From a virus (Duplodnaviria; Heunggongvirae; Uroviricota; Caudoviricetes): a stretch of 10,872 nucleotides of DNA. The notes below the pieces were generated by a model that did not search any database, was not told the DNA's origin, and saw only the letters and a program-made list of their open reading frames with translations. Positions 3,837 through 10,377 of the stretch are shown piece after piece; the stretch's first letter is position 1, and each line of letters starts with the position of its first letter. The DNA lies in IMG/VR virus record IMGVR_UViG_2737471833_000011. One strand, given 5' to 3'. The translations under genes were made by a program, and so were the position numbers.

Positions 3837-4011
3837 CCATAATCCGATGCCGGGAAGCCGTTACAAGGACAGTCACGGGGCTGTAGTGACCGTACAGCGC
3901 GTCGAGCATAACCGAGTGACCTTTTACCGCGAGGGCTATCAGTCGCCATGTGTTCAGCCTTTGGAGAGATTCGTTAATGAGTTCGTGGAGGTGCGCCGTG
4001 ATACTGAATGA
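3829..4011 (+). CDS. Small hypothetical protein, 60 aa
   Basis: ATG 3829 sits inside the CCATGCGTAA junction with the upstream stop; GGAGGT lies 5 nt upstream. Stop TGA 4009-4011. Confidence 0.6.
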   Translation: MRNHNPMPGSRYKDSHGAVVTVQRVEHNRVTFYREGYQSPCVQPLERFVNEFVEVRRDTE

Positions 4012-4915
4012 ACCTGCCGCCCAGAAAGAAGCCTTTAATCTGGCTAGCCTGTTAACAAATGTTAACCCTTACAACCTTATAAAACCAAAGGTCGCGAACG
4101 GCTGCCTGTTATCAATTGTTATGGTTAATGACTTAGCAAAACTTAGCCTGAACCTCACAAAACCTGACATCCACGCACGGGGAATGACGACAAATGATGA
4201 CATTTTAAACCAAGAAATAATCACCTCTAAAAAGCTGATTGTGGGGAATAAATTCCCCCTGCTGGCTGGTGGTATGAACTGGATTGCTACCGTTGTGAAC
4301 CGTTCCACATCGACTTTCGCGACAAATACGCGTGCGCTGGAAGATTTATTAGGGGTCGTTACGCGAGAAGGTGAGTATTCGGAGTCCATAAAAAAGGGCA
4401 GTGCCAGCAGGTCGGACCACCAGCACCGGAAACCGTGTTATATTTCCCCCGCTGGTGTAAATCCACCAGCCGGGCGTGAGAACCTGTTTAATGAGCAAAA
4501 GGCGACACAGACGCGCCCAGCGTCTTTTTTTGTGTCATGCCATCGCGCAACCATACCCAGCGGCAAAGCCCGCACAGTATCTATGGTGGCGCTGGTGGGG
4601 CAGCCGAAAGGCTGGCCGGTTTCCTTTTGCGCCGGTTTTCTCACCCCTGCCAGCGTCACCGCCCCTTATGAGTGTGAGAACTCAGGCGGTGACTCCTTAA
4701 ATTTGCAAAAGGAGGCTGCCATCATGGCTACTACCCCTACCCAAAAACCGCAATTTATCTGGATTATCGCCGCAGTTCGCCGCGATTGCCCGACAATTAC
4801 CGCCAAAATTCATCATATCGCCGCAGAGACTGAGCAGGAAGCACGCCGCTCACTGGCACGCGAGCACGTCACCTTTTTCGCAGGCCGTATCCGTCAGGAG
4901 GTGCGCCATGCGTAA
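3977..4915 (+). CDS. Alternative long reading of a stop-free frame (about 312 aa); may be a real gene, a fused/pseudogenised gene, or partly non-coding
   Basis: The frame is stop-free from 3950 to 4915. Candidate starts are ATG 3977 (GGAG at 3963-3966) and GTG 3998, the latter preceded by GGAGGTGCGCC, the same 11-mer that precedes ATG 4908. Against a single gene: hairpin 4448-4474, terminator-like 4509-4531, inverted repeat 4655-4693 and a strong internal SD+ATG at 4724 all fall inside it. Mutually exclusive with the 4724-4915 call. Confidence 0.35.
   Translation: MSSWRCAVILNEPAAQKEAFNLASLLTNVNPYNLIKPKVANGCLLSIVMVNDLAKLSLNLTKPDIHARGMTTNDDILNQEIITSKKLIVGNKFPLLAGGMNWIATVVNRSTSTFATNTRALEDLLGVVTREGEYSESIKKGSASRSDHQHRKPCYISPAGVNPPAGRENLFNEQKATQTRPASFFVSCHRATIPSGKARTVSMVALVGQPKGWPVSFCAGFLTPASVTAPYECENSGGDSLNLQKEAAIMATTPTQKPQFIWIIAAVRRDCPTITAKIHHIAAETEQEARRSLAREHVTFFAGRIRQEVRHA
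4509..4531 (+). terminator. Candidate rho-independent terminator (6-bp stem AGACGC/GCGTCT, loop GCCCA, then T7)
   Basis: Stem 4509-4514 pairs with 4520-4525, followed by the T-run 4525-4531. The short stem makes it weak to moderate. It is orientation-specific to the + strand. Confidence 0.4.
4655..4693. promoter_or_regulatory. 9-bp perfect inverted repeat GTCACCGCC / GGCGGTGAC with a nested 5-bp stem, 15 nt upstream of a strong SD
   Basis: Arms at 4655-4663 and 4685-4693. Inner stem TGAGT (4669-4673) / ACTCA (4680-4684). The SD AAGGAGG is at 4709-4715. Could be an operator or an RNA structure gating translation. Confidence 0.35.
4724..4915 (+). CDS. Small hypothetical protein, 63 aa (short alternative to the long frame)
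   Basis: Strong SD AAGGAGG (4709-4715) 8 nt before ATG 4724. Product MATTPTQKPQFIWIIAAVRRDCPTITAKIHHIAAETEQEARRSLAREHVTFFAGRIRQEVRHA. Stop TAA 4913-4915 lies inside the CCATGCGTAA junction. Confidence 0.5.
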   Translation: MATTPTQKPQFIWIIAAVRRDCPTITAKIHHIAAETEQEARRSLAREHVTFFAGRIRQEVRHA

Positions 4916-5087
4916 TTACTTCCGTGTTACTGGCTACGCCGTCAATAAGCGCGGGCTGACCGTTGGTATTCATTATGACATCACGGCGAGTCGTGCCAGA
5001 GAAGCCATTAGCCACGCCACTCTACAGGCGCAGCGTGATGGACTGACTCACGTCCGCATTACCTGCATTCAGGAGGTGGCAGCATGA
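4908..5087 (+). CDS. Small hypothetical protein, 59 aa (absent from the supplied ORF track, just under its apparent length cutoff)
   Basis: ATG 4908 preceded by GGAGG (4897-4901). Reads MRNYFRVTGYAVNKRGLTVGIHYDITASRAREAISHATLQAQRDGLTHVRITCIQEVAA. Stop TGA 5085-5087 overlaps the next start (ATGA at 5084). Confidence 0.55.
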   Translation: MRNYFRVTGYAVNKRGLTVGIHYDITASRAREAISHATLQAQRDGLTHVRITCIQEVAA

Positions 5088-5398
5088 GCATATACAACGA
5101 CTTATCACCACTTACGCTTGATGGTTGCACGCCTGACGACCTGAAAGGAATTGAGGAGCGAGCCAGTGAAGCCGCTAGCGATTTATTGGTGGGCGTTAGC
5201 GCCATTGGCAACCTCATGTTTTGGGCGGCAGCCAGTGAAGGCTATCCAGAGAAAGCCGCTAAGGATGATATGTACAGAATCGGCGCAATGTTGGGAACCG
5301 TCGGAGAGGTGGCGCGGGCGCTGAATGATACAGCGCAAAACGCTGCGTTTTTGATATTCGACGGTGAGAAAAAAACCAAAGGGAGGGCGGGCAAATGA
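5084..5398 (+). CDS. Hypothetical protein, 104 aa
   Basis: ATG 5084 with AGGAGG upstream. Start overlaps the upstream stop (ATGA), and its stop TGA 5396-5398 overlaps the next ATG 5395. Confidence 0.75.
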   Translation: MSIYNDLSPLTLDGCTPDDLKGIEERASEAASDLLVGVSAIGNLMFWAAASEGYPEKAAKDDMYRIGAMLGTVGEVARALNDTAQNAAFLIFDGEKKTKGRAGK

Positions 5399-5658
5399 AC
5401 ATTAATACCATCTATCGCCACCCGGCAGAGCTGGAAGCCGAAGCGATGTTATCCCGCGAGCAGGCTTACCCGGATGATTTTACGCTGGCAGACCGAACGG
5501 CAGAACGCATGACCCGCGCCCGCAATGGGCTGGCTCACGTTATGACCGAATTAGCCCCGCACATGGACGCAGAGCAAACAGCAGCCGTCCAGTGCTGGCT
5601 GATGAAGGTTTTGGCTATTGTCGATGCCACCCTGATTGATGCGGAGGGCAGCGCATGA
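5395..5658 (+). CDS. Hypothetical protein, 87 aa
   Basis: ATG 5395 preceded by GGGAGGG. ATGA overlaps at both ends link it to the neighbouring genes. Confidence 0.75.
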   Translation: MNINTIYRHPAELEAEAMLSREQAYPDDFTLADRTAERMTRARNGLAHVMTELAPHMDAEQTAAVQCWLMKVLAIVDATLIDAEGSA

Positions 5659-6281
5659 GCAACGCACCGACCATTAAATCGGGAAATGCCGACTTATTAC
5701 ACGCCGAAGCCACACCGCACGGCGTCAATATCATGACCCGCAATGATGCCGGGGGATATGAGCAGGTTGCTCTTATCAGCTACGAGAGCGCCGTGAACGG
5801 CCTTGACGCCGGAGAGTACGACGATAAGCCAGATATCGGATACGCCATTCATTTTGCCGTTGCTGATGGCGGGGCGCGTGGCTGGTTCGACTTCACCGCG
5901 CAGCATAACGTCACTATGTGGCGCTGGCTGATTGCTGCGACGTTCATTTCTGAGATGAAGCGCGAAAACGGCACAACCACGGTAACTGAGTCTGACGGCA
6001 CTTCATCGCAGGTGGCGATTTACTCCAATGGCACGGCGGGGATTGTGGTTTACCCGTTCGCGGAACGTCTGGCGATGGCTAACAACATGGAGGGCGCAAT
6101 GGTTGAGCGCTACGGCATTGAGCAGGGAACAGCGAACGCCATTGTTTTTTATCAGGCCATGATCGACACGGAGCGCGGCGAGTTGACCCCGTTCGGGCGT
6201 GAAACGCTTGCTGAACTTCACAACAGCTTTATAGCTGAACTGGATGAAAACGGCTGGCCTGAAATGCCGCTGCCGCACTGA
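5655..6281 (+). CDS. Hypothetical protein, 208 aa
   Basis: ATG 5655 preceded by GGAGGG. Stop TGA 6279-6281. No motif recognised. Confidence 0.8.
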   Translation: MSNAPTIKSGNADLLHAEATPHGVNIMTRNDAGGYEQVALISYESAVNGLDAGEYDDKPDIGYAIHFAVADGGARGWFDFTAQHNVTMWRWLIAATFISEMKRENGTTTVTESDGTSSQVAIYSNGTAGIVVYPFAERLAMANNMEGAMVERYGIEQGTANAIVFYQAMIDTERGELTPFGRETLAELHNSFIAELDENGWPEMPLPH

Positions 6282-6290
6282 GGGGGCGAC

Positions 6291-6632
6291 ATGATTACTA
6301 AAAATTTCCGACTTAATGCGCTGGCGAATAAGTATGCGTCGGCACTGTATAACCACATTACGGCTATCAATGGTGGCAATTACTTCATGGTTGACGCGGC
6401 AGGCCAGCAAATCCGTGTGGAAATCGTCAATGGAGTAAAAGGCGTTCGCAGCCTGATCGATAGCTACACACTGGCAGCCATGAAAGTGTCCTACCCGCAG
6501 TGGGAAACCGTGGGGATCGAGATTCTTGATCGTTGCGTCACTAATGACGGATTGACTGACGTAGGGCGCGAGATATGGCAAAGCATGGTTAAAGACATGG
6601 GCGCGACCGTGGCAGGGGGCAACCATGCGTAA
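6291..6632 (+). CDS. Hypothetical protein, 113 aa
   Basis: ATG 6291 preceded by a G-run SD (6282-6286). Stop TAA 6630-6632 lies inside the CCATGCGTAA junction that contains the primase start. Confidence 0.8.
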   Translation: MITKNFRLNALANKYASALYNHITAINGGNYFMVDAAGQQIRVEIVNGVKGVRSLIDSYTLAAMKVSYPQWETVGIEILDRCVTNDGLTDVGREIWQSMVKDMGATVAGGNHA

Positions 6633-9066
6633 TATCGACCTTATCCGCGAAGTGACCAGTGCCGCCGCCGGGCGCTGGCCTTATGTGCTGGCTGGATTGT
6701 CTATCGACGTGCCTGATTCATCGCGCCGCCATTCTCCATGCCCTGCATGTGGTGGAAAAGACCGTTTCAGATTCGACGACAACGGGCGCGGTAGCTTTAT
6801 CTGCAATCAGTGTGGCGCTGGTGACGGTTTAGACCTGATTAAGAAGGTGAACAACTGCGACACTACGGAGGCGGCACAGCTTGCCGCTGATGTGCTGGGT
6901 ATTGATTACCGGGCAGCGGAAACCGACCCGGTGGCAGCGAGCCATAGAAGAGAGCAACTGGAAGCTGACCGCCAGCAGCGTGAGCAGGAGCGCCAGAAAC
7001 AGGCAGCAGAGGATGCAGAGCAGCGAAGGGCTACGTTTGCCCGTCTGTATGCCGGAATGCGCCAGAGTGCCACACAGGGAGAATCTGATTACCTGCAATC
7101 AAAAGGGCTGACCGGGTTTAACTATCCGGTTATGCCGGATGGTTCGTTATTGCTGGAGCTGGTGGACGAATCCGGCGCAGTGGCAGCAGCGCAAACCATT
7201 ACACCGCAGGGAGAGAAGCGACTCCTGACAGGTTCAGCAAAGCGCGGGGCATATCACGCCGTAAACGCACCAGAACAGCCGCAGAGCGTATTAATTGCCG
7301 AGGGGCTGGCGACGGCCCTGTCCGTTCACCTGATGCGCCCGGACGCGCTTACAGTGGCGGCAATTGACGCCGGGAACCTGATCCACGTTGCCGGAGTAAT
7401 GCGCCGGAAACACCCGCAGTCGCAAATTATCATTGCCGCAGATAACGACCACCAGCAGGACGAACAGGCGAACACGGGCAAAGATGCCGCAGAGAAAGCC
7501 GCCTTATCCGTGGCTGGCTGGGTGGCGCTGCCGCCGACAGACTACAAAGCCGACTGGGACGACTACCGCCAGCAAAACGGGCTGGAAGTCGCTACGGCTG
7601 CGTTTAACGATTCGATGTACCAGATTCAGGGGGAAGCCGTGAAACCACAACTACAGGCCATTGTGGGCGGTAAATCCCGCCGTAAAGCCGAAGTCGGAGA
7701 TATTGCACAAATGGCAGCCAGCCAGAAAGCGCGGTTGCTTTCATCTCGCTGGGATATGTTGGCGGTCAACCCTGATAGTGGCACTGTTTACTGCTACGAA
7801 TCTGGCGTATGGGTGAAGCTACCAGACAGCGAATTAGAAAGGGTTATGGTGGCAATTTTCGACGAGCACGAAGCCCACTACACCGAAAAGGGGATTAAAT
7901 CGGTTGTCGCAACCATGAAGCTGCAAATACCGGTAATTGGTGAGCGGAGCGGGGATCTGATTGGTTTTGATAACGGCGTTTATGACCTCGCTACGCAGAC
8001 GTTTTCCGCCCATTCGCCGGGTAACTGGCTGATGAACCACAATGGGATCACCTACACCCCGCCAGCGCCGGGGGAAAATATTACCACCAGCGCCCCCAAT
8101 TTTACCCGTTGGCTGAATCATGCAACGGCTGGCGACCATCATAAGGCCGAGCGTATCAAAGCAGCCTTGTTTATGGTGCTGGCGAAGCGTCACGACTGGC
8201 AGCTATTCATTGAGATAACTGGCGAGGGCGGCAGTGGGAAATCCGTATTCAGCAGCATAGCAACCACGCTGGCAGGTGAACACAACACCGCCAGCGGTAG
8301 CATGATGACGCTGGACACCGCACGGGGACGGGCGCAGTTCGTAGGGAAAAGCCTGATTATTATGCCTGACCAGACCCGCTACGTTGGAGAGGGTGCGGGG
8401 ATTAAAGCCATTACGGGCGGCGATCCGGTAGAGATTGATGGGAAATATGAAAAGCAGTTCACAACCGTGATAAATGCCGTTGTTATGGCAACCAATAACG
8501 AGCCGATGACATTCACGGAGCGAAACGGGGGCATTGCCCGCCGCCGCGTGATATTCCCGTTTAATAACCCGGTATCAGACGCAGACAAAGACCCGGATTT
8601 AACCGCAAAAATCAGGCGAGAAATCCCGGTGATTATCCGCCACCTGCTAACCACCTTTGCCGACCAGAACAAAGCAAAGGCACTATTACTAGAGCAGCGC
8701 GATTCGCAGGAGGCGCTAGAGGTTAAACGCGGCACAGATCCGGTTATCGATATGTGTGCGGCACTTTTTTTCATGAACGAACCCAAAGGCATGATGATGG
8801 GCGGAGGTACATGGGCAGGCCAGCCAGAGCCTAGGACGTATCTTTATCATCTTTATCTGGCGTTTATGGAGTATCACGGTTTGGGTAAACCGCTTTCCGT
8901 CAATAAGTTTTCACGCGCCATAAAATCAGCAGCAAAAGAGTACCGAGCCAGCTACCTGACGAGAAGCATTAACGGCAGAGCGCAAACCAACGTTGGCTAT
9001 AACGAGAAGGCTGAGGAGTTCATGCCACGCGCTTACGGTGTGGAGAGCGGGCAGAGTGATGATTGA
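6625..9066 (+). CDS. P4 alpha-like bifunctional DNA primase / helicase (zinc ribbon + Toprim + P-loop NTPase)
   Basis: 813-aa ORF. N-terminal zinc-ribbon cysteines CPACGG...CNQCG. Toprim-like acidic motif IIIAADNDHQQDEQ. Walker A GEGGSGKS at nt 8221-8244. Domain order is as in P4 alpha and PICI pri-rep proteins. Stop TGA 9064-9066. Confidence 0.93.
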   Translation: MRNIDLIREVTSAAAGRWPYVLAGLSIDVPDSSRRHSPCPACGGKDRFRFDDNGRGSFICNQCGAGDGLDLIKKVNNCDTTEAAQLAADVLGIDYRAAETDPVAASHRREQLEADRQQREQERQKQAAEDAEQRRATFARLYAGMRQSATQGESDYLQSKGLTGFNYPVMPDGSLLLELVDESGAVAAAQTITPQGEKRLLTGSAKRGAYHAVNAPEQPQSVLIAEGLATALSVHLMRPDALTVAAIDAGNLIHVAGVMRRKHPQSQIIIAADNDHQQDEQANTGKDAAEKAALSVAGWVALPPTDYKADWDDYRQQNGLEVATAAFNDSMYQIQGEAVKPQLQAIVGGKSRRKAEVGDIAQMAASQKARLLSSRWDMLAVNPDSGTVYCYESGVWVKLPDSELERVMVAIFDEHEAHYTEKGIKSVVATMKLQIPVIGERSGDLIGFDNGVYDLATQTFSAHSPGNWLMNHNGITYTPPAPGENITTSAPNFTRWLNHATAGDHHKAERIKAALFMVLAKRHDWQLFIEITGEGGSGKSVFSSIATTLAGEHNTASGSMMTLDTARGRAQFVGKSLIIMPDQTRYVGEGAGIKAITGGDPVEIDGKYEKQFTTVINAVVMATNNEPMTFTERNGGIARRRVIFPFNNPVSDADKDPDLTAKIRREIPVIIRHLLTTFADQNKAKALLLEQRDSQEALEVKRGTDPVIDMCAALFFMNEPKGMMMGGGTWAGQPEPRTYLYHLYLAFMEYHGLGKPLSVNKFSRAIKSAAKEYRASYLTRSINGRAQTNVGYNEKAEEFMPRAYGVESGQSDD

Positions 9067-9084
9067 AACTTTTACGGCGGCACT

Positions 9085-9332
9085 TATCCCTACTGCCCTA
9101 CTAAAAACGAGACGAGGCCAGACGTAGCAAGGCTTTAAACTAGGTAGGGATATATATTTTTATCCCTACTTATCCCTACATATCCCTACCAAATAAAACA
9201 GGCAGTAAAATGCCGTTGAAGTGATTTAGTAGGGATAAGTAGGGTTATGTAGGGCAACAAAATTGAATGCCTACCAGTCTGAAAGCCTTGCCATTCGTGG
9301 CATGAGCCAGTTAGTAGGGATTGGTAGGGATA
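9085..9332. repeat. Iteron array (putative origin of replication / crr-like region): at least 10 copies of the GTAGGGA / TCCCTAC core
   Basis: TATCCCTAC at 9085, 9161, 9171 and 9181, the last three as 10-bp tandem units. The complement GTAGGG(A/T/C) at 9144, 9229, 9239, 9249 (another 10-bp tandem triplet), 9314 and 9324. Degenerate copies at 9094 and 9271. Flanked by a C5/G8 hairpin (9336-9365) and an AT-rich stretch (about 9431-9520). Sits immediately 3' of the primase gene. Confidence 0.75.
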
Positions 9333-9405
9333 TTACACCCCCAAAAAGATTCTATGGGGGGGGTGAGCTTAAAACGAAACTTGTCAAAACTTGACACACA
9401 GAACG

Positions 9406-9438
9406 ATGCCACCAGCTACTGAGCGGCGGCATTTTTTT
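9406..9438 (+). terminator. Possible intrinsic terminator (imperfect stem ATGCCaCC / GGcGGCAT + T7); may instead be part of the origin's AT-rich unwinding element
   Basis: ATGCC (9406-9410) pairs with GGCAT (9428-9432); the inner pairs have a mismatch. T-run 9432-9438. Confidence 0.3.
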
Positions 9439-9494
9439 GTGCTATTTGTTTCATATTTTGCAATTACGGTGATAAATATTGCTATTTGTGAAAC

Positions 9495-9500
9495 TATAAT
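9495..9500 (+). promoter_or_regulatory. Consensus -10 hexamer TATAAT upstream of the RHH-like gene
   Basis: Perfect TATAAT 33 nt upstream of ATG 9533. No good -35 at 17 bp. An upstream TGTCAA-N3-TTGACA palindrome (9382-9396) and a direct repeat GCTATTTGT (9441-9449, 9481-9489) are candidate operator elements. Confidence 0.35.
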
Positions 9501-9532
9501 AACTGTTGTTTTATACAGTTCTAAGGGGCGTT

Positions 9533-9706
9533 ATGGCTATTTCAGTAAAGCCGGTATTGATAAGTGAGAAGCAAATGGAAGCGATAAAGAAAATTCAGGA
9601 GGAGCAGCGTAAAAAATCAGAGGTAGGAGTTGCGCCAACGATCCACGAAATTGCTCGGGGATTAATGGATAAGGCGCTAGCCTCACTGGCAAGCGAGGGC
9701 GCGTAA
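9533..9706 (+). CDS. Small ribbon-helix-helix-like DNA-binding protein, 57 aa
   Basis: ATG 9533 with AAGGGG at 9523-9528; the track's 9506 start is a TTG upstream of that SD. The pattern PVLISEKQMEAIKKIQEE ... PTIHEIARGLMDKALASL is consistent with a beta-strand plus two helices (RHH/CopG/Arc-like). Stop TAA 9704-9706 overlaps the next ATG (TAATG). Confidence 0.65.
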   Translation: MAISVKPVLISEKQMEAIKKIQEEQRKKSEVGVAPTIHEIARGLMDKALASLASEGA

Positions 9707-10377
9707 TGGGCGCCATTCACCAGATATATGAGCATGAAATGTTCTATAACTGGATAGGTGATGGTAAACGATGTGTAGCATTCCACGAAGCGGGACATGC
9801 GGTAGCTGCATGGCTTATTCGCTTAGATATACAGGTTATCGCCGTTATGGATGAATACGGTTACGTTGCTGGCGAACATGTACATGAGGCCAAGTGTTTG
9901 GGCGTTGTTAAACACAGCATAATTCACAGCCACGATCTCGGGCGTTTGCGGGATAGTAAATCTGGTGTAGTTGGGCAGAATGGTAAAGTTATCCCTTTCA
10001 TACGTTACTATGCGGATGGTATAAAGCGCGATGCAAAAAAGGCCGCTTTTGTATCCCTCGCCGGACCAGTAAGCGAAGCCCTTTACGAAAACAACGATAT
10101 TTTCAACAAAAAGTATTCGCTACCTCATCGCTATGACATGGCTAACGTAAATGACATGCTCGATTTAATCTGCGCTACAGATAAGCAAATTAACAGGGAG
10201 TTAATGCTTTCTAAACTCGTTGAAAAGACCAAAGCCCTCATGGCTCAATACTGGTATGAAGTAGAAAAAATAGCGCATTTGCTTGAACGGGATAGCATTG
10301 TGAATGGTCGAAATGTTAGCTCGTTAATTGGCATCAACGTCATAGACCGGGCAACGCCATTTTTGCTGGTGGAATAA
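9706..10377 (+). CDS. Stand-alone HEXXH zinc metallopeptidase, FtsH (M41)-like protease domain without an AAA+ module, 223 aa
   Basis: GAGGG SD 6 nt before ATG 9706. Exact FtsH-type motif FHEAGHAV at nt 9781-9804. Downstream SLAGPVSEALYE and MANVNDM resemble the FtsH third-ligand Glu region and the GASNDI motif. No Walker motifs. AT-richer than the primase gene. Confidence 0.85.
   Translation: MGAIHQIYEHEMFYNWIGDGKRCVAFHEAGHAVAAWLIRLDIQVIAVMDEYGYVAGEHVHEAKCLGVVKHSIIHSHDLGRLRDSKSGVVGQNGKVIPFIRYYADGIKRDAKKAAFVSLAGPVSEALYENNDIFNKKYSLPHRYDMANVNDMLDLICATDKQINRELMLSKLVEKTKALMAQYWYEVEKIAHLLERDSIVNGRNVSSLIGINVIDRATPFLLVE

Follow-up and report, generated by a model that had tools for sequence, protein, structure and literature searches.

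The 10,872-nucleotide stretch of viral DNA analysed here (the window) carries 12 iterons of the GTAGGGA type that form a 250-bp pseudo-palindrome around an AT-rich centre. This array (9082-9333, within a module spanning 9067-9377) is very probably a PICI-type origin that is recognised by the C-terminal winged-helix domain of the adjacent primase-helicase. A cognate origin of the adjacent primase-helicase had already been proposed in a first-pass annotation of the same DNA, and the proposal is now supported by homology to the EcCICFT073 origin, by a match of the protein to the structure 1KA8 and by co-variation between the iteron and the origin-binding domain.

Organisation of the iteron array and its flanks

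The primase-helicase gene is directly followed by 467 bp of non-coding DNA, and the array is located there. The stop codon of this gene ends at 9066, the first iteron starts at 9084, and no ORF of at least 50 aa is present in 9067-9390. The earlier placing of the origin downstream of the primase is therefore upheld, as the array directly follows a gene of the P4-alpha type. In a count of exact matches, we observed nine copies of GTAGGGA in the window, compared to 0.59 ± 0.71 expected, and none of the 200 shuffled sequences reached nine. Eight of these exact cores (GTAGGGA or TCCCTAC) fall in 9087-9330. Four further cores have one mismatch (GCCCTAC at 9095-9101, GTAGGGT at 9239-9245, GTAGGGC at 9249-9255 and TGCCTAC at 9268-9274), so that the array comprises 12 sites; the original estimate had been at least 10 in both orientations. 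The ninth exact copy (8341-8347, + strand) lies inside the primase gene, is missing from the copy of the island in PK6, and probably occurs by chance.

Tandem Repeats Finder reported a period of 10 both at 9160-9189 (3.0 copies, 95% matches) and at 9228-9254 (2.7 copies), so the two opposed, 10-bp-phased triplets described earlier are real. Motif counts, the repeat finder and the symmetry together define the following arrangement. An outer left pair on the minus strand (TTATCCCTAC and the one-mismatch GCCCTAC, 8 bp apart; 9084-9101) is followed by a single inward-facing iteron, GTAGGGATA, on the plus strand (9144-9152) and by the left triplet on the minus strand (9160-9189), in which TTATCCCTAC occurs three times with a 10-bp period. 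The right triplet consists of GTAGGGATAA, GTAGGGTTAT and GTAGGGCAAC, also at 10-bp spacing, on the plus strand (9229-9258). It is followed by the degenerate iteron TGCCTAC on the minus strand (9268-9274), which is the mirror partner of 9144-9150, and by the outer right pair, GTAGGGATT and GGTAGGGATA, on the plus strand (9314-9332). The order of orientations, 2<,1>,3< and then 3>,1<,2>, is mirror-symmetric about ~9209. Each of the six mirror pairs has its centre at 9207.5-9209, so that the symmetry is common to the whole array, a property that the first-pass annotation had missed. The 68-nt arms 9127-9194 and 9224-9291 are 75% complementary, and the region 9140-9280, taken as a single strand, folds with a z-score of -6.6 relative to shuffled sequences.

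The spacers between the iterons also have structure. The block CTGAAAGCCTTGCCATTCGTGGCATGAGCCAGT (9279-9311) is mirrored in the left spacer (9113-9141) and contains a small GCCA/TGGC hairpin, the fold being weak (z = -2.0). This block is common to EcCICFT073 and to the L036 locus, and it is kept in EcCICFT073 and Symbiopectobacterium despite their different iterons; the elements that the window shares with EcCICFT073 are CTGAAAGCC, GCCATT, GGCATG and GCCAGT, in this order. A host factor might bind here, or the initiator might make a second contact. Other stretches are candidates for melting. The tract TATATATTTTTA (9151-9162, 0% GC), a candidate unwinding spot, separates the left triplet from the single iteron that precedes it, and its mirror at 9256-9267 (17% GC) is a candidate as well. 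The central 39-bp spacer (9190-9228, 33% GC), a candidate DNA-unwinding element, occupies the dyad centre and holds a small GGCA/TGCC inverted repeat.

We located the right end of the origin module from the coverage of E. coli matches. Matches to the query 9067-9530 cover either query positions 1-312 or 311-462, which puts a mosaic breakpoint at about 9377/9378. Of 5,426 complete E. coli genomes, 77 are matched by a query restricted to the origin, which is not annotated in any of them, and 434 by the whole query. A further ~360 E. coli genomes carry the segment 9377-9528 without GTAGGGA iterons and in different, phage-like surroundings. In strain G749 (L085), two ORFs separate this segment from a gene ~1.6 kb upstream that encodes a primase-helicase-like protein with a DUF5906 domain. 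A 10-bp direct repeat, AAACTTGTCA/AAACTTGACA (9377-9396), is located exactly at the mosaic junction.

The AT-rich stretch that had earlier been counted as part of the origin (9441-9532, 29% GC) lies beyond this breakpoint, in a separate and widely shared module, and we rejected it as an unwinding element for this reason. Melting is more likely at the two sites inside the array (9151-9162 and 9190-9228). The AT-rich stretch is directly upstream of the 57-aa ORF (9533-9706, + strand) and is probably the regulatory or leader region of this next transcription unit. Between the breakpoint and the AT-rich stretch, and hence outside the origin module, a terminator-like stem followed by seven T residues (GATGCCACC...GGCGGCATTTTTTT; 9405-9440, + strand), identified by folding only (-7.7 kcal/mol, z = -2.0), is the probable end of the primase transcript. 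A scan of 8900-9750 for consensus promoters and terminators returned nothing, with no consensus sigma-70 promoter in this region; the element at 9405-9440 was missed by the scan because of an interior mismatch.

The C5/G8 hairpin that had been noted after the repeats (9336-9365) was only partly borne out. The stem exists (7 bp with a 16-nt loop, -6.9 kcal/mol), but it is weak (z = -1.6; 15 of 200 shuffled sequences fold as well), and its C-rich arm is not conserved, the left arm in the relatives being G-rich, hence without a hairpin. It was therefore rejected as a functional element. Folding and alignment of the region 9336-9368 also revealed a post-iteron motif at 9341-9368, which is composed of an A-run, TT and a G-rich run ending in TAAG or TGAG. 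This motif follows the last iteron pair in all the GTAG-type origins that we aligned (the L008, L036 and L002 equivalents). It is possibly a priming or loading site or, in some islands, the ribosome-binding region of the downstream gene.

The primase-helicase and the co-variation of its origin-binding domain with the iteron

The presumed initiator is the 813-aa product of the primase-helicase gene (6625-9066, + strand). Its Pfam domains, in the order Zn-ribbon, Toprim, D5_N, SF3 helicase (DUF5906) and Pox_D5 C-terminus, reproduce the architecture of P4 alpha, to which it is 39% identical over the full length. Residues 360-800 show 55% identity to the Pri-Rep protein of EcCICFT073 (over 441 aa, E = 6e-172), which makes it a homologue of the PICI Pri-Rep proteins, and 47% to that of EcCIRM13514. 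Residues 704-796 (coding region 8734-9012, + strand) match PDB 1KA8, the solved origin-binding domain of P4 (phmmer, E = 2.9e-8). By its domain set, its overall identity and this match, the protein is an initiator of the P4 alpha type. The winged-helix fold of its origin-binding domain is assigned from sequence similarity to 1KA8, because a single-sequence AlphaFold model of residues 699-813 was unusable (pLDDT 49.7). This domain is 32% identical to that of P4 and 47% identical to that of EcCICFT073. Residues 389-649 match PDB 7OLA, deposited only as 'DNA primase', which we take to be a SaPI primase-helicase.

The Pri-Rep proteins of EcCICFT073 (L002, 5242-6996) and EcCIRM13514 (L003, 6231-8054) have the D5_N, DUF5906 and Pox_D5 domains only. 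No Pfam primase domain was matched in either of them, whereas the window protein has both the Zn-ribbon and Toprim domains; the priming route of the short proteins is not obvious from their sequence. Among the loci that we fetched, the Zn-ribbon motif is present in 47 of the 51 proteins of at least 700 aa, and several full-length initiators are associated with the palindromic layout (e.g. L009, L014 and L036). A P4-type primase N-terminus together with a palindromic origin is therefore not unusual in nature.

We compared 666 pairs of loci. At matched helicase identities of 0.7-0.9, the identity of the origin-binding domains was 0.75 in pairs with the same iteron and 0.56 in pairs with different iterons. 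Natural variants agree with this trend. The Rosenbergiella protein (L008) is 85-95% identical to the window protein throughout, except at residues 780-800, where TRSINGRAQTN is replaced by TRLVKGKTQTN (L008 sequence, KTRLVKGKTQTNVSF), and its iteron is GGTAGAG. In L007, TRSINGRAQTN is kept and so are iterons of the GGTAGGG type. The Tatumella protein (L009) is 80-95% identical to that of the window up to residue ~700 and 15-35% thereafter, and the iteron is TGTTCACC. As these variants and the locus pairs agree, the iteron follows the C-terminal origin-binding domain and not the rest of the protein or of the island. This co-variation is the strongest computational support for cognate binding, from which we infer that the C-terminal domain of the primase binds the iterons next to its gene. 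The earlier suggestion of a distinct specificity is reasonable, given that the iteron is not of the P4 TGTTCACC type and that the origin-binding domain is only 32% identical to that of P4.

Two of these loci deserve a separate description. When residues 360-813 of the window protein are compared with L009 (Tatumella morbirosei), the helicase is 81% identical and the origin-binding domain 33%. L009 is a natural domain swap, with P4-type TGTTCACC iterons in the palindromic layout, and in this locus the origin-binding domain and the origin appear to have moved together as one module. L007 is on a contig labelled Chryseobacterium sp. 18061, and it has an enterobacterial-type primase, 85% identical to that of the window, in an ORF truncated to 483 aa. 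This suggests that the taxonomic label is doubtful, due to either contamination or misassignment.

Since the initiator is a full-length homologue of alpha, and since the cluster directly 3' of alpha in P4 is crr, with ori ~4.5 kb away, the array could also be a crr-like cis-acting enhancer that serves a separate origin elsewhere in the island. However, neither the window nor the entire PK6 island holds another GTAGGGA cluster, the copy at 8341 being solitary, and the layout matches the single-site origin of EcCICFT073 rather than the 120-bp tandem units of crr. We consider an enhancer of this kind very unlikely.

A mainly regulatory array, bound by the primase or by another protein of the island such as AlpA or the Ash/Icd-like regulator and acting in copy control or handcuffing, in autoregulation or as a roadblock to read-through transcription, appears equally unlikely. 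Iteron arrays of plasmids are generally known to act in copy control as well, and transcription of the primase gene must cross the array before it reaches the terminator-like element at 9405-9440. On the other hand, the iteron tracks changes that are confined to the C-terminal domain of the primase and not those in other genes of the island, and the homologous region of EcCICFT073 is needed for replication (PMC6092414). A regulatory role would, moreover, be compatible with origin function.

Host island, integrity of the probable origin and proposed mechanism

The window corresponds to an E. coli chromosomal island between yicC and dinD, a site already listed for EcCIRM13514 (Table S1 of PMC6092414). 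All of its genes are on the + strand: a tyrosine integrase (1-1260), AlpA, an AntA-type gene, an Icd/Ash-like gene, small ORFs, the primase-helicase, the 57-aa ORF, a 223-aa ORF and PerC. This organisation matches the description of Gram-negative PICIs (PMC6092414); int and alpA are present, the genes all run rightward, and the insertion site is PICI-specific. The host element is an E. coli PICI-type phage-satellite island. The PK6 island (L001) has an identical origin and is devoid of the window ORFs 5084-5398 and 5655-6281.

An Rfam scan gave no RNA family within the origin, and tRNA genes were not found. Elsewhere in the window, matches above the gathering score were obtained for isrK (4451-4530, + strand, 56.7 bits) and for the C4 antisense RNA (4579-4666, + strand, 79.6 bits), both located within the Icd/Ash-like ORF (3950-4915) or a short distance upstream of it. 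The region looks like a P1/P7-style c4-icd-ant immunity module carried on the island. The Rfam family int-alpA was matched directly after the integrase gene (1269-1335, + strand, 66.1 bits).

The island may have decayed as a satellite and ceased to use its origin. In its strongest form, this reading takes the array as an inactive relic in an element that neither excises nor replicates. Neither the window nor its PK6 counterpart showed recognisable capsid, terS, cos, packaging or interference genes. The PK6 island borders on an ISL3 element next to dinD, and the att core GAGCAGATTCAA was found in one copy only, with one mismatch (GAGCAGATTCAG), at the yicC end of PK6. Against decay, the 813-aa primase ORF is intact, eight of the 12 sites are perfect, and the module is 95-100% identical in the 77 E. 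coli genomes and is also found in Kluyvera and Atlantibacter. A relic therefore seems slightly less probable still than an enhancer or a regulatory array. Least probable of all, to the point of being negligible, is an array that has no part in replication and serves in packaging (pac/cos), in partition or as integrase arm sites: short repeats in both orientations do occur in such sites and the integrase carries an arm-binding domain (Pfam), but the array is ~8 kb from int and attL whereas the arm repeats of P4 flank attP, the published PICI cos sequences differ, and the co-variation with the origin-binding domain would be left unexplained.

For an origin that is recognised by the adjacent primase-helicase, the features of the array suggest the following mechanism. 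Through their origin-binding domains, initiator protomers would bind both triplets, which are opposed, in helical phase and on one face of the helix, as well as the sites around them. SF3 hexamers would then assemble on either side of the dyad centre, possibly as a head-to-head pair by analogy with the double hexamer of mpox E5. The AT-rich spacers or the centre would melt, and the Zn-ribbon/Toprim domain of the initiator itself would prime synthesis. Replication of P4 is independent of DnaA, DnaB and DnaG; the window replicon would likewise dispense with all three and require the host Pol III, as P4 does. Because its iteron differs from those of other islands, it would be orthogonal to co-resident satellites.

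A more far-reaching proposal is offered tentatively. The 2-1-3/3-1-2 palindrome might be a head-to-head template for two hexamers, its specificity might be set by a few residues in the last ~20 aa of the origin-binding domain, and satellites might diversify as orthogonal replicons in this way. If true, initiator and iteron would constitute a reprogrammable code, in which small, readable changes (TRSINGRAQTN versus TRLVKGKTQTN at 780-800) yield orthogonal replicons.

Our data leave the current understanding of the replication of such elements unchanged. They add GTAGGGA as a previously unannotated origin specificity in the Pri-Rep/ori family of Gram-negative phage satellites, and the comparative set, which contains domain swaps that arose in nature as well as nearly isogenic pairs whose iterons differ, points to the location of specificity in the initiator. 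Possible uses are the automatic annotation of satellite origins, the prediction of incompatibility between co-resident satellites and the design of orthogonal replicons.

Comparison with known origins

The likeness to SV40 large T antigen, papillomavirus E1 and mpox E5 is one of mechanism: an SF3 helicase with its own origin-binding domain. Short inverted repeats surround the melting region in these systems, and the hexamers pair head to head (PMC12137749). In particular, mpox E5, a relative in the D5 family, assembles on dsDNA as two hexamers placed head to head, and the double hexamers of SV40 T-antigen and MCM are discussed alongside it (PMC12137749). The origin sequences are unrelated, however, and E5 has an AEP primase in contrast to the Toprim domain of the window protein, so that the double-hexamer step of a P4-alpha-type initiator is put forward as an analogy.

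Classical plasmid iteron origins of the RepA/pi/TrfA type have direct iterons of 17-22 bp, DnaA boxes and a WH1-WH2 Rep protein, and the window origin does not belong to this class. Its iterons are 7-10 bp long and mirrored, and its initiator is an SF3 primase-helicase. No DnaA box with up to one mismatch was found in 9067-9533 and no IHF site above chance in the origin, so an array for the host initiator was rejected. A distant-mode search of a phage collection gave no match. Among plasmids, we obtained five partial matches (H76-H80) to the right half of the origin module at ~79% identity, all on conjugative plasmids of Klebsiella and Salmonella of 270-340 kb, with no annotation at the matched part; these may be related origins on plasmids.

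SaPIs, such as SaPIbov1, are similar in having the origin 3' of pri-rep and a self-loading helicase as initiator, and in having two iteron sets that flank an AT-rich region, as described in PMC6092414. They differ in iterons, host and lineage, and the similarity of the proteins is distant and confined to the helicase core.

P4 is closer. It shares with the window a full-length homologous initiator (39% identity) composed of primase, SF3 helicase and 1KA8-type origin-binding domain, and a cluster of short iterons (7-10 bp) in both orientations that comes directly after the initiator gene. The differences are in the DNA. The P4 iteron is TGTTCACC whereas that of the window is GTAGGGA, which is not a type I iteron; GGTGAACA is carried by P4 and RM13514. 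P4 has separate ori and crr sites, and its crr is a 120-bp unit of five sites that is duplicated in tandem, in contrast to one palindromic cluster and no 120-bp repeat in the window. With a different iteron, a single cluster and no such duplication, the window origin is not a P4 ori/crr system. The P4 iteron and the palindromic layout are combined in EcCIRM13514, Ecol_224 and L009.

The closest counterpart is EcCICFT073. Its pri-ori segment maintains a temperature-sensitive plasmid, and deletion of pri or ori impairs this maintenance (Fillol-Salom 2018, ISME J, PMC6092414); the legend of Figure 2 in that paper describes the AT-rich region flanked by two iteron sets as a possible melting site. 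We found that the DNA 3' of the Pri-Rep gene in both EcCICFT073 and EcCIRM13514 has the identical 2-1-3/3-1-2 arrangement, with GGTAGA(C/T)A iterons in the former and TGTTCACC, the P4 type, in the latter. In the window, the triplets 9160-9189 and 9229-9258 flank the 33% GC spacer, as expected for a Gram-negative PICI origin. The window and EcCICFT073 origins can be aligned directly, with invariant GTAG/CTAC cores at the iteron positions, the orientation string --+---+++-++ or one near it, and, beyond the last iteron pair, an A-run and then a G-rich run; the two layouts are homologous. Each origin immediately follows its initiator gene, the proteins share 55% identity over the helicase and origin-binding domain, and the islands are of one type (int, alpA, unidirectional genes and perC). 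The differences are in the iteron, GTAGGGA(TA) in the window and GGTAGA(C/T)A in EcCICFT073, in the P4-type Zn-ribbon/Toprim N-terminus, which the CFT073 and RM13514 proteins do not have, and in the downstream region, where capsid or packaging genes are not seen in the window. Initiator-dependent autonomous replication has been shown for EcCICFT073 only (PMC6092414) and is predicted for the window copy.

GTAGGGA iterons are absent from all seven published E. coli PICIs that we fetched for comparison (CFT073, RM13514, 042, ATCC 25922, IHE3034, Ecol_224 and D i14), out of the 14 islands listed in PMC6092414. A literature search on the iteron sequence was uninformative, since TTATCCCTA belongs to the I-SceI site. 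The published PICIs of E. coli 042 (L086) and clone D i14 (L090) have a RepA-family helicase instead, with different downstream repeats (AAAGTGAGG and AAAGTGGGGA), indicating a second, unrelated class of initiator and origin within the same island family.

Scanning one genome per species, we obtained 80 further loci that code for relatives. The same orientation string occurs in ~20 of them, which together use at least eight different iterons and belong to several genera, many of them other Gammaproteobacteria (Rosenbergiella, Tatumella, Xenorhabdus, Symbiopectobacterium, Rahnella, Raoultella, Kluyvera, Enterobacter, Edaphovirga, Morganella, Serratia and others). The window origin is of a type already described for Gram-negative PICIs, and is less novel than the first-pass annotation had implied; in every feature that could be compared, it agrees with a Gram-negative PICI Pri-Rep origin.
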